Below are positions 1,462 to 26,383 of a stretch of 26,609 bases of DNA, in pieces (position 1 is the stretch's first letter; each line of letters opens with the position of its first letter). Made by a program: the position numbers and the translations under genes. Source of the stretch: a virus (Duplodnaviria > Heunggongvirae > Uroviricota > Caudoviricetes); the IMG/VR virus record IMGVR_UViG_2648501334_000005; one strand, 5' to 3'. The notes beneath the pieces are model-generated. The model was given only the letters and a program-made list of their open reading frames with translations. It was not told the DNA's origin and searched no databases.

Positions 1462-5142
<3,681 letters not shown>

Positions 5143-7694: not shown

Positions 7695-7712
7695 GTGCGA
7701 CCACGGTCGCAC
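7695..7712. promoter_or_regulatory. sopC-like 18-bp palindrome GTGCGACCACGGTCGCAC, copy 1 (candidate SopB centromere site)
   Basis: Near-perfect inverted repeat with arms TGCGACC/GGTCGCA, differing in one arm position from the F sopC core TGGGACCACGGTCCCA as I recall it. Lies 24 bp upstream of the 286-aa gene start. Confidence 0.5.
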
Positions 7713-7914: not shown

Positions 7915-7932
7915 GTGCGACCACGGTCGCAC
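7915..7932. promoter_or_regulatory. sopC-like 18-bp palindrome GTGCGACCACGGTCGCAC, copy 2
   Basis: Identical to copy 1. Lies between repeat B and the DUF4406-like gene. Confidence 0.5.
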
Positions 7933-10680: not shown

Positions 10681-10815
10681 AGCTATTATTTTTTTGCCTG
10701 GGTAAGCTAACCCGGCGATGCGCATCGCGGGTGGGCTTTAGGTTCAGCCTATAGCTCTGGCATGGGTTGACCGCAGGACAAGCTGCAACTTGTCCTGCGC
10801 CCACTTTTCAGGCAC

Positions 10816-10838
10816 AAAAAAACCGCCATAAAGGCGGC
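10816..10838 (-). terminator. Intrinsic terminator, tR'-like, upstream of the methyltransferase and lysis genes
   Basis: Minus strand reads AAGCCGCCTTTATGGCGGTTTTTTT: a GC stem, 5-nt loop and 7-U tract. Confidence 0.5.
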
Positions 10839-10924
10839 TTGTTGGCTGTTGGGTACAAAAAACCCAACTTAACAAAACAATAACTAAAAACCGTCATTTT
10901 GCCAAGCTTTTTCGTTTTTGTGCT

Positions 10925-10942
10925 GTGCGACCGTGGTCGCAC
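10925..10942. promoter_or_regulatory. sopC-like 18-bp palindrome GTGCGACCGTGGTCGCAC, copy 3
   Basis: Same arms as copies 1 and 2 with the centre inverted. Lies in the intergenic region between the 75-aa ORF and the tR'-like terminator. Confidence 0.5.
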
Positions 10943-10947
10943 AGCTT

Positions 10948-11175
10948 TTAGAAAGTTGCCTGCTTATATTCATCGGTCAAAGAATATCGACCAGATCCGC
11001 TACGCTTTGCAACCCCAAAACAAATCATCTGTTCGATGATAAATTCAACGGCAGCTTGACTCAAAAAACAGGCTTCGCTTAACTCTTTCAGGGAAATGCG
11101 TGGGTATCCACGCATAACACATTCCACACTCAGGGCCGCTTCAGTCATATTTCCACGAATTTCATTAATATTCAT
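10948..11175 (-). CDS. Hypothetical protein, 75 aa
   Basis: Track ORF in an operon-like array. No family recognised. Confidence 0.4.
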   Translation of the reverse strand: MNINEIRGNMTEAALSVECVMRGYPRISLKELSEACFLSQAAVEFIIEQMICFGVAKRSGSGRYSLTDEYKQATF

Positions 11176-11188
11176 AACGCCTCTCTAA

Positions 11189-11428
11189 TCAATCTTGAAA
11201 CTGGAAATCAACATCAGCCATAAAGCGGTTCAACTCAGCCAGTTTTGGCCCCATAGTCCCAACTAAGCGACCAGCCAGTCGGTCTGTTAGGTTGGTACTG
11301 TTGAAACCATATTCCTTTTCGAAACGTTCAACCTTCTGCCACAACTCATACAGTTCGTTAGCTATCTCCGCAACGTCGTCGCGCATTTTTTCGTTACCTT
11401 GATAATTCATAATATCCTCCAAATTCAT
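11189..11428 (-). CDS. Hypothetical protein, 79 aa
   Basis: Track ORF. No family recognised. Confidence 0.4.
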   Translation of the reverse strand: MNLEDIMNYQGNEKMRDDVAEIANELYELWQKVERFEKEYGFNSTNLTDRLAGRLVGTMGPKLAELNRFMADVDFQFQD

Positions 11429-11575
11429 ATAGTTAGTGGGTTATTGCCCCTCAATGACACGAACTGTAACTCTGCCAAACGAACACATCCAGTGTTATTT
11501 TTCGCTTTTTAGTGAAATTTTTAATTTGCGCTGTTTTCTTGTTTTGGTGTATTTTATGGATATGGAGGCTATAAT

Positions 11576-11887
11576 ATGTTTAACGTGATAACCCACCCTG
11601 CAGCACTGGATGAACTGCTTGAACTACCAGATGATCTGCGAGGTCGCATGACCAGATTAATTGAGCGACTGGAGAAAGAAGGCAACAAACTGAAGATGCC
11701 CCATAGCCGTGTAATAGGTGGAGGGCTTTTTGAACTACGAGTAGGGGATAAAAACATCGCAAGAACGCTGTACGCCTACGCGACTGGTAACGAAATTTAT
11801 CTATTGCATGCATTTGTAAAAAAGACACAGAAAACACCGGTGAAGGCTATCGAAATCGCCAGAACTCGCCTGAAGGAGATGAACTGA
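11576..11887 (+). CDS. Type II toxin, RelE/ParE superfamily (HigB-like / Gp49-like), 103 aa
   Basis: Track ORF. C-terminal LFELRVGDKNIARTLYAYATGNEIYLLHAFVKKTQKTPVKAIEIARTRLKE matches the Gp49/HigB-like consensus. GGAGG Shine-Dalgarno before the ATG. Stop overlaps the next ATG (TGATG). Confidence 0.75.
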   Translation: MFNVITHPAALDELLELPDDLRGRMTRLIERLEKEGNKLKMPHSRVIGGGLFELRVGDKNIARTLYAYATGNEIYLLHAFVKKTQKTPVKAIEIARTRLKEMN

Positions 11888-12174
11888 TGAAAGCGAAAGG
11901 CATCCCGTTTAACGAAGTAAAAGAAAAACTCCTCAACACTCCAGAAGCCGTCAAAGGATATGAAGAGGCCGACAAAGAGCTGGAGATGGTCGAAATGTTA
12001 TACGAAATGAGGGAAAGAGCAGGTTTAACGAAATCAGCTCTGGCTGAACGAATGGGGTTGCGACCGTCAGCCATCAGCCGCCTGGAAAGCAATCCTTTAG
12101 GGGCAAGTATGAAAACTTTGGCTAAATATGCTCATGCCTGCGGCGCAACCATCGATATTCGCGCTGTTTATTAA
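11887..12174 (+). CDS. HTH XRE-family antitoxin (HigA-like), 95 aa
   Basis: Track ORF. Helix-turn-helix segment LTKSALAERMGLRPSAISRLESN. Translationally coupled downstream of the toxin, in the toxin-first order typical of HigBA. Confidence 0.75.
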   Translation: MKAKGIPFNEVKEKLLNTPEAVKGYEEADKELEMVEMLYEMRERAGLTKSALAERMGLRPSAISRLESNPLGASMKTLAKYAHACGATIDIRAVY

Positions 12175-12216
12175 TTAGACTCTTTTACTACCCCGTCCAG
12201 AAGGGCGGGGTGTGCA

Positions 12217-12420
12217 TCAATGATGTGAACGCTCAACAGCGATAGTTTTCTGACAATGCTGGGCAATCTCTCGCGACATGTTGATGAGTCGTGAAACCTC
12301 ACCAATATGTAGGCTGGCTTCTGGAGAAGCCAGGGTGACGCTAACCAGATCCAGAACGGCGTCAATATCTCTTAAATTTGAATCGAGTTGTTCAAGAGTT
12401 GATACGGCTGCTTCAGACAT
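12217..12420 (-). CDS. Hypothetical protein, 67 aa
   Basis: Track ORF. No family recognised. Confidence 0.35.
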   Translation of the reverse strand: MSEAAVSTLEQLDSNLRDIDAVLDLVSVTLASPEASLHIGEVSRLINMSREIAQHCQKTIAVERSHH

Positions 12421-12502
12421 TAAATCTCATACCATTTAACTAAAAAAGGTTATTTATACTGTATAAAATTACAGGGTAAAACTCAAACTTTACGGTCAAT
12501 TT

Positions 12503-12745
12503 TCAATGAATTAACTGCGTAAACTGCTGTGTGGCCCGATACTTATGCTCTCTCCCTATGCCACGATCAACTTTCTCAAGAAGTCCAGTACGGACAGCAG
12601 AATCAAGCATCCTTTTAACAATTCTGCTATTTAACCCAACATCAAAAGCAAGCATCGAAGCGAAAACAAACCCATCACCACCATCAGAAAAGCTCTTTTC
12701 GCTCCGTTTTCGTATCATTTCAAAAAGCAATGCCTTTTTATCCAT
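12503..12745 (-). CDS. Hypothetical protein, 80 aa, possible winged-helix DNA-binding fold
   Basis: Track ORF. No family recognised. Confidence 0.4.
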   Translation of the reverse strand: MDKKALLFEMIRKRSEKSFSDGGDGFVFASMLAFDVGLNSRIVKRMLDSAVRTGLLEKVDRGIGREHKYRATQQFTQLIH

Positions 12746-12763
12746 TTATCCCTCCGTGACCAG

Positions 12764-13090
12764 TCACGCTTTGAGTGCAAGTTTCAGCCTCGTGGTTGTA
12801 AGGTGGCATGACCCTTCGCCATCAAAAATGCATTCTGAAACAGGCATTTTTTGACCACATCGCGGGCAAGTAGTAGATAGCTGCTTCTGCAGCTCCTTAT
12901 AGTTTTTCCTGATCAGCAAACCAATGACTTCGTTCTCCGAATATGGAACTCGCCCTGGTCTACGCAATACACAAATTTCCCCCAACATACGTAACTCGTC
13001 AGGTTCTAGAATCCAGTCCCGTCTTGATGTGCCTTCCTTCTTCAATCGTTCCCTGCGTCTCCTTTGCCGTTCTGCCGGTGTCAGCGCCAT
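12764..13090 (-). CDS. Hypothetical protein, 108 aa, arginine-rich N-terminus and a CPRCG zinc-ribbon-like motif
   Basis: Track ORF. No family recognised. Confidence 0.4.
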   Translation of the reverse strand: MALTPAERQRRRRERLKKEGTSRRDWILEPDELRMLGEICVLRRPGRVPYSENEVIGLLIRKNYKELQKQLSTTCPRCGQKMPVSECIFDGEGSCHLTTTRLKLALKA

Positions 13091-16192: not shown

Positions 16193-16493
16193 TTTCTTGT
16201 GCGACCACGGTCGCACCCTCTCTGATTTCCAAGTAACGCTTAATCCAAAGATTTTCTATATGCTTATTACCTGGCTGATTTGATAAATACCAATCGGCAA
16301 TTACAGACTGCTTATTACTATCTGGCCGTGTCCTGTAACCACAAGTTGGACACCAGATAACATATTCATTTCTTACCCCCGAATACCTTAATTCTGGCTT
16401 CGACGGTTTCCTGAACATAACTTGTTTACAAAGGCAGAATGGCACTTCCTGCCCGATGGCGTTTGATGATTTCACTGCGCTTCTCCGCCGCAT
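16173..16493 (-). CDS. Zinc-ribbon protein, possibly Lar-family restriction alleviation protein (start uncertain)
   Basis: Track ORF. YVIWCPTCGYRTRPDSNKQSVIADW resembles the Lar-family pattern of CxxC followed by an AIxAW motif. The 3' end encodes ATVVAQ across palindrome copy 4. Confidence 0.35.
   Translation of the reverse strand: MRRRSAVKSSNAIGQEVPFCLCKQVMFRKPSKPELRYSGVRNEYVIWCPTCGYRTRPDSNKQSVIADWYLSNQPGNKHIENLWIKRYLEIREGATVVAQENENNAI
16199..16216. promoter_or_regulatory. sopC-like 18-bp palindrome GTGCGACCACGGTCGCAC, copy 4
   Basis: Identical to copies 1 and 2. Lies in the 3' end of the Lar-like ORF, just upstream of the next gene start. Confidence 0.5.
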
Positions 16494-18280: not shown

Positions 18281-21200
18281 ATGACATTAAACGATTTCTA
18301 TGCGGATCGCTTTGGCAGCGATCCGTTCTCGCTAATTGAAGCAGCACGGGATGAACTAACCGAGCTGGCACAGATGGCTGGTATCAACTGGCCTGCCTGT
18401 TCCGACAACATCCAACTCAACCCTCGCGGGGGGGTTGAGCGTTACTCTTCATACAATAAAACATCTCCAGAAGCTCTCGAAAAGAGCCTGAAAGGACGCG
18501 TAGAAATTTACTCCAGGCTGGAACACAGCAAAGGGATTGATTACCCGTTCATTAACTTCGTCCATAAAGGCAGCGATGCTGGCTCATGGAGCGGTTTCTC
18601 CTTCCTGTTTTCTGAATATCGCCGTGAGCAACAACGGAATAATGCGACCGTGGTCGCACAACCGGAAGAAGAACGGGAAAGAATAGAACGTCAGGCCGAA
18701 GCACGTCGTCGCCGTGAAGAACAAAAACGAATTAATGACCTGAAAAACAACCAAATGGACCATGAACGTTTGCTGGGATGGCTGGCATTCCACAGCGCGT
18801 GGGAACATGCTCCGGCTGAAGACGGCTCATGGCCATATGCGATTAAAAAAGGTATTCGTGACGTTTTTAGTTCATGTGATGTGCGTCGCGTGACCAGTCA
18901 CGACAGTGCGAAATGGAGCCGGGGGCCAACCACATATATGGCTATCCCTCTGGCTCACCTGGACGGTCGTTATGATGGTCGTATTGTGGGTTGGCAGCGA
19001 ATCGACAAACAAGGTGGGAAATACCAGACCAGCGCAGTAACCAGCGGCGATTTCGTCGGTGCCTGCTTTGTTATCGGTGAGCTGAAAGGGGCGCAAAACA
19101 TCGCTGTTACAGAAGGTTTTGCTACTGGTGCATCCATCTGGCTTGCCACGAAAAAAGATAAACGCTTTGACGCTGTGGTTGTCGCTGTATCCGCTAACAA
19201 CATGGTTCATGTTGTGGAACAACTGGTAAACATGTACCCGGCGGCAAAAATCACCTGCGCACTGGATAATGACCGGAAATCTGCCACAGAAGGAAAAGGG
19301 AATACAGGCCTGCGGACTGGCTATGAAATCTTATCGAAATTCAACGATGTCCGCTGCGTCTATCCAACTTTTGAAGACGATCCGCAAATGGAGTGCAGTG
19401 ACTTCAACGACCTGCACAAACTACGTGGACTTCGTGAAACAGCACGTCAACTATTTGCAACAGCAAACCGCCTGAAAACCGGTACTGATTTGCTATCTCT
19501 GACGCTCAACCGCCTGAAGACAATTAAGCGGGATAACCGTCGTACTTTTGCCAAAGAGCTGCTGAGAGCGGTGGATATTGGCATGCTAACCTGTCCGGTT
19601 CCTAACAGTCCGTCAGATTTATTTAACATGTTCTGCATCGTTCTGCGTGAAATGGGACTGGAAAATATCTATCGCGCTACGGTAAAAGACCACATTGCCC
19701 GTCGCCTGAATAAAAAGTGCCGTATTGCCCAGGCTCCGCGCTCTTTCAGCGAACGCATAACTGATCCCAATAAACGCCCTCAACATATCACCTATAAGCG
19801 TTTTGAAACTTCGGTAATGACCGATGATGTCCTGAAGTACGTGCAATCACTACAGGGGATAGTCATCGTCCGTGCTGGTATGGGTTCCGGCAAATCTACT
19901 GGATTGTTACGACCGTTAATGCATAGCTCAGAACGTGGTATCTCTGTTGCTCACCGTGTCTCCCTTATTGGTGGCCTGTGGGAAATGATGACAGAAGGAA
20001 AAGGTGTAAAAGCCGATATCCTGCACTATCAGGATCCTGGCTATCAGGAAATGGCTCCATACGCCAGTAAACTGACCATCTGCATAAACTCGATTGTTAA
20101 AAACTGCTGGCAACCGTTGATGCGCCAGCACGACTATTTTGGCTTTGACGAGGCCACACAAGGGCTACGTGCCGTTCTTTCCGGTCGGGCTATGGAAAAC
20201 CCGGTGGCTGTATTCAATACGCTAATTGACGCGCTGGCCAGAACGGAACAACACCCAATCATGGTAGATGCTGATGCGAACGATCTGCTGGTTGACCTGG
20301 CTGAACTGGCTATGAAACGCCGTGAAGAACTAGGTTTACCGGCATGGCTGCAGATCCACGTAATTGAATTACCTGTTGATGTTCGCAACCGCGAAACAGG
20401 TGAGCCAATCCGGGTTTTTTATACAGAAAAAGATCGCATCATGACCGAGGTGGTGAAAGCTGTATCGGATGGCGAAAAAATCATGTTGGCCACCGACAGC
20501 TCCACCTTTGCAGAAGATGTGACAGCCACCCTGAGAATGCATTTTCCTGGTAAGAAATTTCTGTGTGTAAACCAGAAAAACAAACCAGAGCCAGAAGTTG
20601 AAGCATTTACCAATCAACCGAAAAAGATGGTCAAAAAATACGACGGCCTGATTTATAGCCCGTCTATTTCATCCGGCGTGTCGATTGAGCAAAAACATTT
20701 TGACCGTCATTTCGGCATGTTCTGTGGTGAAGTTGTACCCAGCGACGCAGTGCAAATGCTACGCCGCGACCGTACAGCAAAAGAATTTATTATCGGCTTT
20801 GATAAAGCTCGTGCAAAACGTGAAACTGACCCGCAAAAAATAGAACGAGCATTCGCCCAGGCATTGCTTGCTACCGCAGGTATGAACGGTGAACTGACGG
20901 ATGTCGTTTTCGATGGCGACCGTATATCAATGGGGGTGGCCAATACCGACTTTACCAGGATGAAAATTAAAGCAGCCGCAATTGAAGCGACTGCGCGTAA
21001 CGACTACGCCAGCAACATGATCTGCATCATGCACAGCGACGGTTATAAGGTATCGCCGCTGGCCACCGATTATGCTGCGAATGATATCGGTAAAGATCTG
21101 CGTAAAGAAGCGCGGGATATTGTGTGGGAACAGACACTGGATCTGCACCTCAATACAGAAACTCCACAAGAATCAGAGCGTGAAGAACTGCTAAAAAAAC

Positions 21201-22276
21201 GCGCGCTGACGCTTGAAGAACAGGCAAAACTTGTCCGCTGGGATATTGAAAACGAACTGAAACTACCGGTTGAAGAAGGCACGCTAAAATTCTATTTCGA
21301 TGGTGCTCGAGACAAAGTTCGCCGCTATGAAACAATGCTTTTAGATGAGGTAACAGCTCGTCGTTACGACCGGGAAGAAGCAGCCATCAATTTTACCTAC
21401 GCATACCGTCAGGCGGGACAGTGGCAATATTTTGTAGTGACCGCGATGACTCGCGAGCAGGCTGATGATGTCTTTAAAACTAAATTCCCTGGAATAATCG
21501 ATCACAAGGTAAAAGCTACTCCTACTGTTGAAGTCGGGGCGCGCGGTTTCTATGCGCTTAAATCAGCAACTCTCCGGCAGTACTTTATCGACTGCGGTAT
21601 CAACCCTGAGACTATGACCGGCGAGGCGACTCAGGAGCGTCTCAAATTCGCTCGAGATAACCTCATGACAGCCGAACGCCGTGACCTGTTGAATAACGTT
21701 CTGCACATTGGTGGTTTTATGACGCCAAAAGGGAAGCCTAAAGTGCCGGAAGCGTTGTTTAAAAACATTTGCGACTCTCTTGGCCTTAAAACAGGTAAAC
21801 GTCGCGGCAGAGACGGCGATAAGCGTCCAACCTTGCGTTTTGTTGAGCCTGAATCAGCGGCATTTATGCTGGATATTCTTGTTCAGCGTCAGAAAGATGG
21901 CCTAACACTAAAAACGCGTAAAGCCGAGAAGACAGCCATCGAAATGGATCGCGATTTGGATCTCAATATATATATGGATGATAAAACGCGATCCACAAAC
22001 GAGCAGGTTCAAAACGCCCCTCATTCAGTAATTTCTGAGGCTTTGGCCGTGTTGCCAGTGGCTGTACCTGAGTCCTGGGCGATGAGTGCGCTTTCCAGTG
22101 AGGAGTTGGCCACTATGTCATCATGGTCATCAGCCAGCATAGCTATGACGTTTGCATCCCTGTACCTCACAGAGTTCATGGATCACCTTTCCAGCAATGA
22201 GCTGCGGCGGTTACGTGAATACATTACGGGGAATAGCTCATGCAGCTACGAAGAGCAGGGTGCTTTCTATGGGTAA
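18281..22276 (+). CDS. repA: Replication protein RepA, multidomain primase (TOPRIM) - helicase, 1331 aa
   Basis: Track ORF. TOPRIM-like motifs NIAVTEGFATGASI and CALDNDRKS, Walker A GMGSGKST and Walker B-like FGFDEAT. Size and position next to cB match N15 RepA (about 1324 aa as I recall). Confidence 0.9.
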   Translation: MTLNDFYADRFGSDPFSLIEAARDELTELAQMAGINWPACSDNIQLNPRGGVERYSSYNKTSPEALEKSLKGRVEIYSRLEHSKGIDYPFINFVHKGSDAGSWSGFSFLFSEYRREQQRNNATVVAQPEEERERIERQAEARRRREEQKRINDLKNNQMDHERLLGWLAFHSAWEHAPAEDGSWPYAIKKGIRDVFSSCDVRRVTSHDSAKWSRGPTTYMAIPLAHLDGRYDGRIVGWQRIDKQGGKYQTSAVTSGDFVGACFVIGELKGAQNIAVTEGFATGASIWLATKKDKRFDAVVVAVSANNMVHVVEQLVNMYPAAKITCALDNDRKSATEGKGNTGLRTGYEILSKFNDVRCVYPTFEDDPQMECSDFNDLHKLRGLRETARQLFATANRLKTGTDLLSLTLNRLKTIKRDNRRTFAKELLRAVDIGMLTCPVPNSPSDLFNMFCIVLREMGLENIYRATVKDHIARRLNKKCRIAQAPRSFSERITDPNKRPQHITYKRFETSVMTDDVLKYVQSLQGIVIVRAGMGSGKSTGLLRPLMHSSERGISVAHRVSLIGGLWEMMTEGKGVKADILHYQDPGYQEMAPYASKLTICINSIVKNCWQPLMRQHDYFGFDEATQGLRAVLSGRAMENPVAVFNTLIDALARTEQHPIMVDADANDLLVDLAELAMKRREELGLPAWLQIHVIELPVDVRNRETGEPIRVFYTEKDRIMTEVVKAVSDGEKIMLATDSSTFAEDVTATLRMHFPGKKFLCVNQKNKPEPEVEAFTNQPKKMVKKYDGLIYSPSISSGVSIEQKHFDRHFGMFCGEVVPSDAVQMLRRDRTAKEFIIGFDKARAKRETDPQKIERAFAQALLATAGMNGELTDVVFDGDRISMGVANTDFTRMKIKAAAIEATARNDYASNMICIMHSDGYKVSPLATDYAANDIGKDLRKEARDIVWEQTLDLHLNTETPQESEREELLKKRALTLEEQAKLVRWDIENELKLPVEEGTLKFYFDGARDKVRRYETMLLDEVTARRYDREEAAINFTYAYRQAGQWQYFVVTAMTREQADDVFKTKFPGIIDHKVKATPTVEVGARGFYALKSATLRQYFIDCGINPETMTGEATQERLKFARDNLMTAERRDLLNNVLHIGGFMTPKGKPKVPEALFKNICDSLGLKTGKRRGRDGDKRPTLRFVEPESAAFMLDILVQRQKDGLTLKTRKAEKTAIEMDRDLDLNIYMDDKTRSTNEQVQNAPHSVISEALAVLPVAVPESWAMSALSSEELATMSSWSSASIAMTFASLYLTEFMDHLSSNELRRLREYITGNSSCSYEEQGAFYG
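18642..18659. promoter_or_regulatory. sopC-like palindrome ATGCGACCGTGGTCGCAC, copy 5 (17/18), inside repA coding sequence
   Basis: Same TGCGACC/GGTCGCA arms. Encodes ATVVAQ in RepA. Confidence 0.45.
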
Positions 22277-23504: not shown

Positions 23505-23644
23505 TGGCCTTTGATTAACGATCAACTTCTGATCACTCGTTCAAGCAAACTATAAAAACACCTGTCCCCGTGACTGGTCACGGGGTAAAATGTCTTTGCA
23601 AATTATTGACGTGCGCGTCGTTTTGACGGTAAAGTTTACTCCGC

Positions 23645-23717
23645 TACGGTAAATCCCGTAGCCGGGCGTAGGAACCCGAGTAAATGAAGCGCACAACACG
23701 CGCCAGCGTGTTTTTTT
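23645..23717 (+). ncRNA. Candidate c4-like antisense/regulatory small RNA of an immI-like anti-immunity locus
   Basis: Possible promoters with TTGACG -35 boxes at 23606-23611 and 23623-23628. Hairpin GCTACGG-TAAATC-CCGTAGC. Intrinsic terminator at 23696-23717 (ACACGC-GCCA-GCGTGT followed by T7). GTAGGAA motif (23668-23674) is complementary to TTCCTAC (23801-23807) in the icd leader. Boundaries are approximate. Confidence 0.3.
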
Positions 23718-23880
23718 GTGTGTAAAATCTGCGTACACCAAATTTATGGTGGCTCAGATGGGGCAGCTTTTAGCTGGCCGGTTTCTTCGTTTACCGGTAT
23801 TCCTACCCCCGTCTGGGCTACCGCCATATAGAGCGTAGGAACTCTGGTGGTAGCACGACCAATTAAACGGAGTGCATACC

Positions 23881-24481: not shown

Positions 24482-26383
24482 TTATCCGAAATATGTCAGC
24501 CATGCTAACTGCATTGCTGATATAGGGCTGTTTGCACTGCCGGACCAAGCATAATTCTGGCCATTATAATGAAACTCAACAACGTATGAGCCATCACCAA
24601 TATTTCTCACAGGCTTAAATACCGGCTTAGATACAGGTGAAGAAGGCGCGGGCGGTTGCTGTTCTTCTACGCTCTCTTCCTCTTCCTCTTCCTCTTCCTC
24701 TATCTCAATTTCGTCGTCATCCAGATCGTCATCCTCTGATAATTCATCCGTCTGTTCAGGTATTGCTTCCAGCTCTTCTTCGTCAGGCATAACGATTTCT
24801 GGAGAATCTATTTTCAGCTGCCATTGTCCATTTTCGCCAACAAATTGCCCCAGAGCATCAGCAGCAAATTCCAGGTATCGACTAATCATTGTAGGGCTAA
24901 ATTTGAATGCTCTTAGAGTGCTGTTCGTGATTTTTATAGAGGGGTCCTGCTCTACCAGCTGCTTAACTGTGTTATGCAGACGAACTCCGGCATCTCCTCT
25001 GGCGAATCCTGGCATTTCGTCATCAAGCTGCTGCAATGCTTCCAGCCTGGTATTTTCGTTTCCAGTATTTGGCCTCCATGTCTTTGAGAAGTTGGCCAGC
25101 TTGAATTGCTTATAGTGTAATTGAGTGTTTTCATCGTCATGGCCTAAAATTTCCATAAAGAAAACATCCTCATCTACGTTTTTCCAACGAGGATCTACGC
25201 GGAAAAACATTTCATACGCAATACGGGCATAAATAGCACGACTATCTTTATAAACACGGCGGTCATCTTTGAAAAATGATTTAACCCACGGGTTAAAAGC
25301 CTTTGCTAATATGGCATTAATCCGTCCGTTTTCAGAGCGTGTGTCGTTATCTCCATAACCTTTAACGACATCATCAAAATCAGATGCTGCTGGGCATGAG
25401 CGAAGTACATTTATTAAATAAACAAATGTTTTTGCTTCGCATAATGTATATATTTTTCTGGTTATATCATCAGAAGTTCTTTTTTTTGCTTGGCCTAAAA
25501 AATCAACGGTATACTTACCAGAAACAGTAAATGTACCTTGATACATAATCTCAATCATTCGTCTTCCAGACAATGCAGCAAGTGCAAATGCCAAAGGAGC
25601 CATACCTGAACGAGTGTTTAGATTATTTAATGTAGCAGGGCTATTTATAATATCGTAAATAGCTTGCATATATTTAGGGTAATCAATGACCACTACGTTA
25701 CGTTTCTTATTGTGCAGAACGTCTGCCCATCGTTGCTGGATAGATGCGCGTTCGGCAGGGCTTAGTTGAAGATGATAGAGAATCTCATGGTTAACTTTTA
25801 GCTGATTCAACTCCTCAAGTAAGGCAGATCCTTGCTGTAGTAATTTATATAAATAATCGCGCTTATCTTTCCAGTTATCGCTAGTTAAATCAGAAATGGC
25901 GAATTGCCACTCTTTATATTTATTTGATAATTTTAATAACTTATTATGACTTTTGTTATCACCAATTCTGATATTAGATAAATCTTCTGATAAAGGGAGA
26001 ATTAATTTTAATTTTGCCTGTAAAGCTGACATTCTCTGGCGAATATCGGCAGCAGGTAGAGAAAGCCATGATAATAGCTCCTCATTATATAAAGGATACT
26101 TTTCAGATAGGCGATGTATATTTTTTTCAAAGCTATGATGAAGTTTATCATCAAACCGTTTTCTGGCCCTGCTCATATAGGCATTGAATGTGTTGGCTGT
26201 AATTCTTTTTTCTAATCCTTTCCCCCTAAACTTTCGCTTGTCATTAAATAATGCATTTTTAAATTTTAATGCAACAGCTTTTATTTTTTTTGTTTTTTCC
26301 CCTTGAGGACGGTCAGAGTTATCTATTGACTCAACATCGCTAACAAGTGAGTTTATTAATTCACCGATTTTTACTTTGCTCAT
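24482..26383 (-). CDS. telN: Protelomerase (telomere resolvase) TelN, 633 aa
   Basis: Track ORF. MSKVKIGELINSLVSDVESIDNSDRPQGEKTKKIKAVALKFKNALFNDKRKFRGKGLEKRITANTFNAYMSRARKRFDDKLHH... tracks N15 TelN (about 631 aa) as I recall it, including the acidic C-terminal stretch. Strong AGGAGAGG ribosome-binding site. Confidence 0.92.
   Translation of the reverse strand: MSKVKIGELINSLVSDVESIDNSDRPQGEKTKKIKAVALKFKNALFNDKRKFRGKGLEKRITANTFNAYMSRARKRFDDKLHHSFEKNIHRLSEKYPLYNEELLSWLSLPAADIRQRMSALQAKLKLILPLSEDLSNIRIGDNKSHNKLLKLSNKYKEWQFAISDLTSDNWKDKRDYLYKLLQQGSALLEELNQLKVNHEILYHLQLSPAERASIQQRWADVLHNKKRNVVVIDYPKYMQAIYDIINSPATLNNLNTRSGMAPLAFALAALSGRRMIEIMYQGTFTVSGKYTVDFLGQAKKRTSDDITRKIYTLCEAKTFVYLINVLRSCPAASDFDDVVKGYGDNDTRSENGRINAILAKAFNPWVKSFFKDDRRVYKDSRAIYARIAYEMFFRVDPRWKNVDEDVFFMEILGHDDENTQLHYKQFKLANFSKTWRPNTGNENTRLEALQQLDDEMPGFARGDAGVRLHNTVKQLVEQDPSIKITNSTLRAFKFSPTMISRYLEFAADALGQFVGENGQWQLKIDSPEIVMPDEEELEAIPEQTDELSEDDDLDDDEIEIEEEEEEEEESVEEQQPPAPSSPVSKPVFKPVRNIGDGSYVVEFHYNGQNYAWSGSANSPISAMQLAWLTYFG

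Follow-up and report, generated by a model that had tools for sequence, protein, structure and literature searches.

A probable type II toxin–antitoxin operon of the Gp49/Tad–Ata group in an N15-like linear plasmid-prophage

The locus described here lies in a 26,609-nucleotide stretch of viral DNA (IMG/VR record IMGVR_UViG_2648501334_000005), which is referred to below as the window. Two plus-strand genes, for a Gp49-type toxin and an XRE-type antitoxin, are bounded upstream by a leader and downstream by a hairpin (Table 1). The toxin stop codon (TGA, 11885–11887) and the antitoxin start codon (ATG, 11887–11889) have an A in common, and this one-base overlap, TGATG, is compatible with translational coupling of the two genes. 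Because the flanking genes are all on the minus strand, positions 11429–11575 form a divergent intergenic region and positions 12175–12216 a convergent one. The original prediction had placed a toxin-first pair on the plus strand between minus-strand genes, and its coordinates are exact to the base. The gp51–gp50/gp49–gp48/gp47 synteny is identical in phages N15 and phiKO2, and a toxin-first overlapping layout with an XRE-HTH antitoxin is also found in four distant homologous loci. Base composition gave no signature of foreign DNA (44.7% GC for the cassette versus 47.3% for the window), and Rfam returned no match within or near the cassette.

Table 1. Features of the toxin–antitoxin (TA) locus, in window coordinates
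Feature	Position	Strand	Remarks
gp51-like gene	10948–11175	–	
gp50-like gene	11189–11428	–	
Whole mobile TA cassette	about 11497–12212	+	Operator palindrome, promoter, toxin gene, antitoxin gene, 3' hairpin
Candidate operator palindrome	11500–11517		TTTCGCT-TTTT-AGTGAAA; 7-nt arms, 4-nt spacer, one mismatch
Probable operon promoter	11526–11555	+	-35 TTGCGC (11526–11531), 18-nt spacer, -10 TATTTT (11550–11555)
Toxin Shine–Dalgarno	11564–11568	+	GGAGG, 7 nt upstream of toxin ATG
Toxin ORF	11576–11887	+	103 aa, ATG start
Antitoxin Shine–Dalgarno	11873–11878	+	AAGGAG, 8 nt upstream of antitoxin ATG
Antitoxin ORF	11887–12174	+	95 aa, ATG start
GC-rich hairpin	12190–12212	+	Between the convergent stops of the antitoxin (12174) and gp47-like (12217) genes
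gp47-like gene	12217–12420	–	
Further flanking gene	12503–12745	–	
Further flanking gene	12764–13090	–	

The element that carries the locus is an N15-like linear plasmid-prophage (Ravinvirus). The window encodes a protelomerase that has the full set of four TelK domains (E 1e-50 to 5e-25) and a RepA-like primase (a 1331-aa Toprim/ori-binding protein), Q is also present, and five dispersed centromere-like palindromes are identical to the 'partitioning site' of phiKO2. Its first 25 kb are 97.6% identical over 95% to Escherichia phage PhiR46_1. The distribution of the module in E. coli fits the same picture, with 16 occurrences among 5426 complete genomes, all 16 on plasmid records some 46 kb long, none chromosomal. 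The earlier premise of a linear plasmid-prophage is borne out by the protelomerase, the primase, the palindromes and these plasmid-only copies. In PLSDB, 28 of the 29 plasmids with the module are non-mobilizable. N15-type plasmids have an active partition system besides the TA pair.

The toxin matches the Pfam family Gp49 (PF05973, named after the N15 gene gp49) with 101.6 bits, where the cutoff is 23.9 (E 2.5e-29), and its residues 12–100 cover profile positions 1–90 of 90. The same family is present in 119 of 120 homologues among the matches listed, the sole exception being a truncated fragment. The protein is 100% identical to proteins of the Ravinvirus phages PhiR46_1 and YDC107_1, 92% identical to N15 gp49 and 91% identical to phiKO2 Gp49, and judged by its sequence it is an orthologue of N15 gp49 (Tad; a Gp49-type, HigB-like member of the RelE/ParE superfamily). 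Its sequence matches in the PDB are HigB toxins. An AF2 model (pLDDT 88.6, pTM 0.82) has the predicted element order beta-alpha-alpha-beta4-alpha, and in a Foldseek search its best match was ribosome-bound Mtb HigB1 (7nbu_Y; TM 0.80, E 3e-6), with S. pneumoniae HigB next, then YoeB, RelE and YafQ, and ParE lower. As modelled, the toxin adopts the RelE/ParE (BECR) fold, and its C-terminal helix is long, as in other Gp49-like toxins.

The pocket residues of Mtb HigB1 (K58, E66, R68, N73, R77, F93, K95, Q98 and K99) map to R45, E53, R55, N60, R63, F80, K82, Q85 and K86 of the toxin, where the mapping is a reading of alignments against the residue lists of PMC9098466 and PMC7984235, and placing R63 requires moving the HMMER alignment by one residue. 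The 41 homologues compared show no variation at E53, R55, R63 and K82 and at least 90% conservation at F80 and Q85.

The antitoxin is composed of about 35 N-terminal residues followed by an XRE-type HTH domain (residues ~36–90) that matches HTH_3 with an E-value of 2.8e-12. It is 85% identical to N15 gp48 and 80% identical to phiKO2 Gp48, which marks it, at the sequence level, as the orthologue of N15 gp48 (Ata). Its sequence matches in the PDB are Mtb HigA2, HipB and S. pneumoniae HigA. Comparisons with N15, phiKO2 and other copies give dN/dS values of 0.02–0.06 for the two genes (about 0.06 for the antitoxin). Both are under strong purifying selection, and they are therefore not chance ORFs.

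Profile searches of both proteins and the fold search of the toxin agree with the original description of a Gp49/HigB-like toxin paired with an XRE-HTH antitoxin. The name HigB holds in its broad sense and fails for the Rts1-type HigB Pfam families, since the toxin is a member of the Gp49/Tad branch: PF05973 alone was reported at E ≤ 0.01, with no match to the HigB-like_toxin and HigB_toxin profiles (PF05015, PF09907), and HigB structures from E. coli and Shigella stand low in the Foldseek ranking (E about 0.05–0.09). 'HigBA-like' is thus an architecture label and does not denote membership of canonical HigB. No NCBIfam model matched the toxin at E ≤ 0.01 and the antitoxin gave only sub-threshold matches of the HipB, RstR and MqsA type, so that no equivalog can be assigned.

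The leader contains a palindrome that occurs once in the window, where none is expected by chance. In N15, phiKO2, KpLi5 and an E. coli plasmid its symmetry is complete or almost complete. The Xenorhabdus copy of the module, whose toxin is 77% identical, has TTTCTCT-TTTT-AGAGAAA at an equal distance from the ATG, a symmetric double change that leaves the palindrome intact. The antitoxin may bind here, 8 nt upstream of the -35 element and off the core promoter. In the N15 record the site is labelled as a putative terminator stem-loop.

We consider 11526–11555 the probable promoter of the operon, with a predicted transcription start at about 11562. It scores under the threshold of the consensus scan, whose sigma-70 sites were no more numerous than in shuffled sequences. 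Preference for this site rests on conservation of its elements: a -35 TTGnGT and a -10 TATATT or TATTAT stand at the matching position in the N15, phiKO2, KpLi5, Xenorhabdus and Yersinia copies. The only plus-strand match of the sigma-70 scan, 11406–11433, falls within the coding start of gp50, has no conserved counterpart in N15 or phiKO2, and was rejected. A promoter-like site within the toxin gene, upstream of the antitoxin, was not found. The leader had been described as a divergent promoter region. This description is confirmed for the plus strand; on the minus strand, inspection of 11429–11499 by eye for a gp50–gp51 promoter revealed no convincing conserved -35/-10 pair.

Other inverted repeats in the leader were set aside. 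Two of them (I1 and I2) simply arise from the ribosome-binding sites of the divergent genes, each strand having its own GGAGG...ATG, and a third (I3) lacks conservation in N15 and phiKO2. A fourth (I4, CATCCAGTG / CACTGGATG) is a partly conserved upstream block that pairs with coding sequence, and would be relevant only if transcription begins far upstream.

The GC-rich hairpin that had been predicted on the convergent side is real, with the caveat that it is not a canonical terminator. It consists of ACCCCGTCC-AGAA-GGGCGGGGT, and the 56-nt stretch that contains it folds with −19.8 kcal/mol (z = −3.4), a stability reached by none of 200 shuffles. Neither strand has a U-tract beside it and it went unflagged in the terminator scan, so a function as a terminator or as a 3' mRNA stabiliser can only be conjectured. 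KpLi5 and the IncK plasmid described below both have this hairpin along with the cassette; the hairpin of phiKO2 is another one, with a T-tract.

Comparison with other elements delimits a mobile unit. The IncK2/Z conjugative plasmid pEA26_3 of E. albertii carries the same pair at 91% nucleotide identity in an unrelated context, and the homology begins at the palindrome and stops just past the hairpin. In the related Ravinvirus Enterobacter phage MStein-2023a, homology to the window in a MAFFT alignment is lost near the same left edge; blastn extends it to 11545. This phage has hicAB in place of the toxin gene at exactly this position, and the orphan antitoxin gene is frameshifted where hicAB displaced the toxin gene. 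The presence of hicA–hicB at an identical position suggests that the slot selects for TA function. The pair had been called inserted, which is apt for the cassette boundaries but not as a recent event in this genome, because the arrangement is ancestral to N15, phiKO2 and the Klebsiella relatives.

Taken together, these observations make it highly probable (roughly 85%) that the region is a type II TA operon of the Gp49/Tad–Ata group, orthologous to N15 gp49–gp48, that acts as a post-segregational addiction module. In the proposed mechanism, the single promoter at about 11526–11555 would yield a bicistronic mRNA, and coupled synthesis of toxin and XRE-HTH antitoxin would produce an inactive complex. 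The antitoxin, alone or with the toxin, would repress the operon from the 11500–11517 palindrome, to which it putatively binds. If a daughter cell lost the low-copy linear plasmid-prophage, the presumably labile antitoxin would be degraded and not replaced. The freed toxin would then act at the ribosomal A site, probably by ribosome-dependent mRNA cleavage, and arrest growth, so that plasmid-free segregants would be outcompeted, the outcome known as post-segregational killing.

The pair is already known, as a characterised N15-type TA pair that is real but ordinary; this identity of the locus with N15 gp49/gp48 had been missed earlier. N15 gp49–gp48 (Dziewit et al. 2007, J Bacteriol 189:1983) is described as a stabilising TA system in PMC2701414, PMC5906591 and PMC4553209. 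The 2007 study is cited as validating Tad toxins, N15 gp49 included, with toxicity and neutralisation by the antitoxin reported for the N15 pair, and the citing literature also credits the N15 orthologue with stabilisation of heterologous replicons. For the present copy, a stabilising role would draw indirect support from its confinement to plasmids within E. coli and from the other TA pair that occupies the slot in MStein-2023a. The proposal of an addiction module matches this published work, as the citing papers relate it, on a pair 92% and 85% identical to the present one. For an SXT homologue, deletion of the pair did not increase loss of the element (PMC2654960). Stabilisation of a test plasmid is therefore no proof of a maintenance role in the native element.

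The N15 pair is the closest of the known systems. Beyond the identities given above, it shares the lengths of 103 and 95 residues, the same overlap, the position between gp50 and gp47 in opposite orientation to them, the conserved upstream palindrome and promoter, and the kind of replicon. It differs in that the genes are only about 77–81% identical at the DNA level, with synonymous sites near saturation, in the one palindrome mismatch of the present copy, and in the convergent spacer, which is 42 nt with a hairpin here and about 380 nt, unannotated, in the N15 record. The group prototype, tad–ata of Paracoccus aminophilus pAMI2, can be likened by description: it is toxin-first, with a COG4679/DUF891 (Gp49) toxin, an XRE-HTH antitoxin and a plasmid-stabilising role (PMC2701414, PMC3832669), but it is a distant homologue from an alphaproteobacterial circular plasmid.

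Mtb HigB1 (Rv1955, a TAC toxin) and S. pneumoniae HigB–HigA share with the present system the Pfam family, the fold (TM 0.75–0.80, at 23–28% identity), the long C-terminal helix, equivalent pocket residues and a downstream HTH antitoxin gene, and palindromic operators have been demonstrated for S. pneumoniae HigA (PMC7984235). Both of these systems are chromosomal, whereas ours is on a plasmid-prophage; the SecB-like chaperone gene of the Mtb HigB1 system is absent here, and with 103 residues our toxin is the shorter protein, as is its C-terminal helix, in which R117 has no counterpart. HigB–HigA of Rts1/Proteus vulgaris is alike in its toxin-first order, RelE-superfamily toxin, HTH antitoxin and plasmid-stabilisation role, but its toxin belongs to another Pfam family (PF05015/PF09907). 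The phd–doc module of phage-plasmid P1 is analogous in role, as an addiction module of a low-copy plasmid-prophage, with unrelated proteins (Fic-fold Doc kinase, Phd antitoxin) in antitoxin-first order.

It is unlikely that the main selected role is instead anti-phage defence by abortive infection, or the exclusion of rival phages or plasmids, with infection or a competitor causing loss of antitoxin and a shutdown of translation. RelE/ParE-superfamily TA modules, HigB-type TAC systems among them, are linked to defence in published work, PMC11980606 included, and homologous cassettes elsewhere also reside on chromosomes and on a conjugative plasmid, so the cassette is not tied to low-copy replicons. 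The turnover of the slot between gp49/48 and hicAB likewise resembles that of defence hot spots. Within E. coli, however, phage-plasmids or plasmids are the only carriers of the module, and the activity documented for the N15 orthologue in the citing literature is replicon stabilisation. A search of PADLOC-DB 2.0 gave no full-length defence match and no backing for the defence role suggested earlier: the toxin covers 54 C-terminal positions of the 293-position NsnC model (E 2.6e-7), a partial match in favour of defence, and the antitoxin has generic HTH matches only. Defence and maintenance can also coexist.

A related and similarly doubtful idea is that the gp50/gp47 junction of N15-type phage-plasmids is a dedicated exchange slot for mutually displacing TA cassettes, gp49–gp48 in most of these elements and hicAB in MStein-2023a, whose role is inter-element competition or phage exclusion and not plain maintenance. 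Under this idea, the hairpin, having no U-tract, might let early leftward transcription during induction run antisense into the antitoxin gene. If true, such read-through would couple prophage induction to toxin release.

Within the preferred reading of an addiction module, the target of the toxin deserves separate comment, and we know of no molecular target that has been determined for N15 gp49. The Dziewit 2007 study reportedly saw cell elongation on over-expression, and its authors are said to have suggested that different targets were possible. A toxin that is toxic yet not a ribosome-dependent mRNase, acting like ParE on DNA gyrase or on some other target, would share its fold with the gyrase poisons of the RelE/ParE group (PMC11980606), and ParE structures are indeed among the Foldseek matches. 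These nevertheless fall well under the mRNase branch, with TM-scores of about 0.46–0.53 and E > 0.02 compared with 0.75–0.80 for HigB1, HigB, YoeB and RelE, and the toxin has no match to Pfam ParE_toxin (PF05016) at E ≤ 0.01. The basic and aromatic residues of the mRNA-cleaving pocket of HigB1 and S. pneumoniae HigB are present and conserved throughout the family. Ribosome-dependent mRNA cleavage has been demonstrated for Mtb HigB1 (PMC9098466), and gp49/PF05973 ('tad', 'HigB1'), in T/A gene order, is tabulated under ribosome-dependent mRNA degradation (mBio 2025, PMC11980606). We therefore regard a different target as improbable.

Least credible of all is an inactive pair, in which the Gp49-like protein, like Mtb HigB2 and HigB3 or E. 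coli Z3230, would lack toxicity and the HTH protein would regulate neighbouring phage genes: non-toxic members of the Gp49 family do exist (PMC9098466) and many phage records read only 'hypothetical protein' or 'transcriptional regulator', but the residues reported missing in HigB2 and HigB3 (K58, N73, F93 and K99; PMC9098466) are matched here by R45, N60, F80 and K86, the N15 counterpart of the toxin, 92% identical, counts as a validated toxin in the citing literature, the toxin gene is under very strong purifying selection (dN/dS 0.02–0.04), the two genes travel jointly into non-phage contexts, and the orphan antitoxin gene is frameshifted after hicAB replacement, as expected if its job is to neutralise the toxin.

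As the orthologue of a TA system described in 2007, the operon carries little weight as a discovery. Studies of phage-plasmid maintenance gain some small additions, namely the extent of the cassette, its replacement by hicAB in one relative and the operator footprint. The practical gain is better annotation of phage records: the NCBI pipeline labels the pair correctly in E. coli plasmid records, and in the closest phage records, PhiR46_1 and YDC107_1, both genes still read 'hypothetical' or 'helix-turn-helix'.

The toxin and antitoxin genes are already known: N15-type phage-plasmids carry them as the gp49-gp48 (Tad-Ata) module. Over 1.7 kb around the pair, identity is 99% to the Escherichia phages PhiR46_1 and YDC107_1, both of the genus Ravinvirus, and 75% to Klebsiella phage phiKO2. 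The toxin shares 92% identity with N15 gp49 and 91% with phiKO2 Gp49, and the antitoxin 85% with N15 gp48 and 80% with phiKO2 Gp48. The order gp51-gp50 (minus strand), gp49-gp48 (plus strand), gp47 (minus strand) is common to the window and all of these phages. One earlier study (PMC2701414) states that the Pfam family 'Gp49' is named after the N15 phage gene, places Ata antitoxins among the Xre/Cro HTH proteins and links Tad to RelE RNases.

Features of the gene pair, its surroundings and related loci (window coordinates unless another record is named)
Feature	Position	Strand	Details
Toxin ORF	11576-11887	+	103 aa
Antitoxin ORF	11887-12174	+	95 aa
Toxin Shine-Dalgarno	11564-11568	+	GGAGG, good match
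Antitoxin Shine-Dalgarno	11873-11878	+	AAGGAG, good match
Neighbouring genes	10948-11175, 11189-11428, 12217-12420, 12503-12745, 12764-13090	-	ORF table
GC-rich hairpin	12190-12212	+	ACCCCGTCC-AGAA-GGGCGGGGT, from folding
Predicted promoter	-35 11526-11531, -10 11550-11555	+	TTGCGC, TATTTT, 18-nt spacer
Upstream palindrome	11500-11517		TTTCGCT-TTTT-AGTGAAA, one mismatch, unique in window
Palindrome, N15, phiKO2 and an E. coli plasmid			arms TTTCACT/AGTGAAA, perfect; spacer TTTT (TATT in phiKO2)
Palindrome, Klebsiella phage KpLi5			TTTCACT-TTTT-AGTTAAA, one mismatch
Palindrome, Xenorhabdus (77% toxin identity)			TTTCTCT-TTTT-AGAGAAA, distance to ATG unchanged
Palindrome, Yersinia (68% toxin identity)			TTAACT-TAAT-AGTTAA, second palindrome over -35
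Putative partitioning-site palindrome (18 bp)	7695-7712, 7915-7932, 10925-10942, 16199-16216, 18642-18659		GTGCGACC-GT/AC-GGTCGCAC
RepA-type Toprim/origin-binding protein ORF	18281-22276	+	large; domain search
Protelomerase ORF	24482-26383	-	all four TelK/protelomerase domains
hicA, phage MStein-2023a	1400-1582 of CP115603.1 region		toxin-gene place; Pfam HicA_toxin, 6.8e-10
hicB, phage MStein-2023a	1625-2056 of CP115603.1 region		toxin-gene place; HicB-like_2, 2e-12

Both ORFs are as originally described, with coordinates and strand that match the ORF table exactly, and minus-strand genes do lie on either side. Because these neighbours are all on the minus strand, the interval 11429-11575 is divergent and 12175-12216 is convergent. 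The two genes meet at TGATG, where the last base of the toxin TGA is the first base of the antitoxin ATG. The hairpin claimed for the convergent spacer is present and folds stably (-19.8 kcal/mol for a 56-nt stretch, z -3.4; equalled in 0 of 200 shuffles). It lacks a U-run on both strands and was not flagged by a terminator scan. The premise of a linear plasmid-prophage is verified by the protelomerase, the RepA-type protein and five putative partitioning-site palindromes; the window also encodes a CB/CI-like repressor, Q and a DNA methylase. The palindrome GTGCGACCGTGGTCGCAC, found five times in the window with 0.01 copies expected by chance, is identical to the 'putative plasmid partitioning site' annotated in the phiKO2 record, and the dispersed copies probably correspond to the centromere sites that N15-type plasmids typically have at scattered positions.

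The original observation of the gene pair is confirmed, and its interpretation as a plausible addiction module is supported. In 2007, Dziewit et al. reportedly found that the N15 pair stabilised heterologous replicons, that in each cassette both the toxin and the antitoxin were preceded by a promoter, and that over-expressing the toxin had a bacteriostatic effect and made cells elongate. One caveat for a maintenance role is that active partition also operates in N15-type plasmids. Another comes from the SXT homologues: Wozniak and Waldor report that these made a heterologous plasmid more stable but were dispensable for the stability of SXT, whose loss did not rise when they were deleted (PMC2654960). 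Less probably, the pair could serve defence or exclusion, supported only by general precedent and a partial domain match of the toxin to PADLOC NsnC.

The toxin gives a full-length match to Pfam Gp49 (PF05973; E 2.5e-29, 101.6 bits, cutoff 23.9) and also matches phrog_2523; the profiles thus uphold its placement among RelE/ParE-type toxins. For the antitoxin, the matches are to HTH_3 along with further XRE-type HTH models (E 2.8e-12), and to phrog_1373, 'transcriptional regulator'. NCBI pipeline labels in E. coli plasmid records are 'type II toxin-antitoxin system RelE/ParE family toxin' and HTH protein. By sequence, the closest PDB chains are Streptococcus pneumoniae HigB (E 5.5e-5) and Mycobacterium tuberculosis HigB1 for the toxin, and M. 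tuberculosis HigA2, HipB and S. pneumoniae HigA for the antitoxin. An AlphaFold2 model of the toxin, built from 41 homologues, is confident (pLDDT 88.6, pTM 0.82), and a Foldseek search of the PDB ranks ribosome-bound HigB1 first (7nbu_Y, TM 0.80), followed by crystalline HigB1, S. pneumoniae HigB, and then YoeB, RelE and YafQ. A ParE-like target is disfavoured, since the ParE gyrase poisons rank clearly lower (TM about 0.5), the Pfam search of the toxin gave no ParE profile match and the RNase-pocket residues are conserved.

These residues were mapped from HMMER alignments to PDB chains and published lists for M. tuberculosis HigB1 (K58, E66, R68, N73, R77, F93, K95, Q98 and K99; PMC9098466) and S. 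pneumoniae HigB (E66, R68, R73, F90 and K92; PMC7984235). The equivalent toxin positions are R45, E53, R55, N60, R63, F80, K82, Q85 and K86, where R63 requires a one-residue shift in a loop of the alignment. Among 41 toxin homologues with identity down to 43%, E53, R55, R63 and K82 are invariant, 90% or more keep F80 and Q85, and N60 and K86 vary. The non-toxic M. tuberculosis HigB2 and HigB3 reportedly lack certain HigB1 residues (PMC9098466); the window toxin has them. Selection on both genes is strongly purifying: dN/dS is 0.02-0.04 in the toxin gene and about 0.06 in the antitoxin gene, and synonymous sites approach saturation in the comparison with N15. The conserved pocket and this selection favour, by homology, a toxin that would act as a ribosome-dependent mRNA endonuclease and be kept inactive by the HTH antitoxin. 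A 2025 survey assigns gp49/PF05973 (names include tad, HigB1 and HigB3) to ribosome-dependent mRNA degradation with gene order T/A (PMC11980606). A non-toxic regulator pair is disfavoured by the purifying selection, the co-mobility of the two genes and the N15 orthologue, which is cited as validated.

To the known module we add minor points: the cassette limits, the copy on an IncK plasmid, the conserved footprint of a candidate operator and promoter, and an apparent replacement by hicAB that has left an antitoxin remnant in decay. The region upstream of the pair is conserved among N15-like elements, with -35 TTGnGT and -10 TATATT/TATTAT downstream of a palindrome; in the window, transcription is predicted to start near 11562. 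The Xenorhabdus palindrome carries a symmetric double change that keeps the dyad, and the cassette flanks there and in Yersinia are unrelated to those of the phage. The N15 record annotates its copy upstream of gene 49 (2924-2944 of the NC_001901.1 region) as a 'putative rho-independent terminator'. The conservation with symmetric compensatory change, and the precedent of S. pneumoniae HigA, whose operators are palindromic (PMC7984235), suggest that the better reading is a candidate operator to which the dimeric HTH antitoxin would bind; it lies 8 nt upstream of the -35. A small plus-strand ORF (11436-11588) overlaps the toxin gene's operator, promoter and Shine-Dalgarno, and a 44-aa 'hypothetical protein' is annotated at its place in PhiR46_1; as it spans conserved non-coding regulatory elements, it is probably a spurious gene call.

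The pair also occurs, at 91% DNA identity (toxin 99%, antitoxin 93% at the amino acid level), in pEA26_3, a 100-kb IncK2/Z MOBP conjugative plasmid of Escherichia albertii (1500-2180 of the NZ_CP117612.1 region), where it is flanked by a gene for a type IA topoisomerase and by a hypothetical gene preceding a DotA/TraY gene. Homology begins at the palindrome and stops just past the hairpin, which delimits a mobile unit of about 11497-12212. In pEA26_3, ∼30 nt are deleted between palindrome and promoter, so that the palindrome falls on the -35. More distant homologues (toxin identity 58-77%) are isolated two-gene units, always Gp49 then HTH_3 with a 4-nt overlap, at unrelated insertion places and in some cases between housekeeping genes: between hydrogenase/hyc (formate hydrogenlyase) genes in Buttiauxella agrestis (1501-2096 of the chromosomal region), at unrelated chromosomal sites in Xenorhabdus and Yersinia, and beside an integrase gene in a metagenomic prophage. 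Such isolation in unrelated contexts shows that the cassette moves on its own. In E. coli the module is present in 16 of 5426 complete genomes, always in plasmid records of about 36-68 kb, with no chromosomal copies among the 5426; of the 29 PLSDB plasmids with the module, 28 are non-mobilizable.

To either side of the pair, the window is collinear with the Ravinvirus Enterobacter phage MStein-2023a (blastn aligns 10700-11545 and 11882-13090), which carries hicA and hicB at the place of the toxin gene (1340-2380 of its region, equivalent to window 11546-12174). Its gp48 homologue, 73% identical over the first 60 residues and then in the +1 frame after a break near codon 58, reads as a frameshifted remnant. 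The slot looks like a toxin-antitoxin cassette replacement with a decaying orphan antitoxin, although the frameshift may be a sequencing error. The presence of hicAB at this place and the antitoxin decay are both consistent with gp48 serving to neutralise the toxin, and with selection that maintains some toxin-antitoxin system there. In the N15 record, ∼380 nt between genes 48 and 47 (3600-3980 of the region) lack annotation; the window counterpart, collinear by blastn, holds a 67-aa ORF (12217-12420, minus strand) that matches phrog_6301 and, weakly, an anti-repressor phrog.

Elsewhere in the window, a promoter-like site (TTGGCA-17-TATTGT, 10877-10905, minus strand) has, ∼40 nt downstream of it, an intrinsic terminator that is strong, with an 8-bp stem and T-run (10820-10840, minus strand). 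They lie between the gp51-like and methylase genes, where phiKO2 has a 'putative late promoter' and terminator, and are probably a Q-dependent late promoter/terminator pair. Upstream of the protelomerase gene, adjoining gathering-level Rfam matches to isrK (23643-23716, plus strand, 62.5 bits) and C4 antisense RNA (23742-23828, plus strand, 73.6 bits) resemble the P1/P7-type anti-immunity RNA region.
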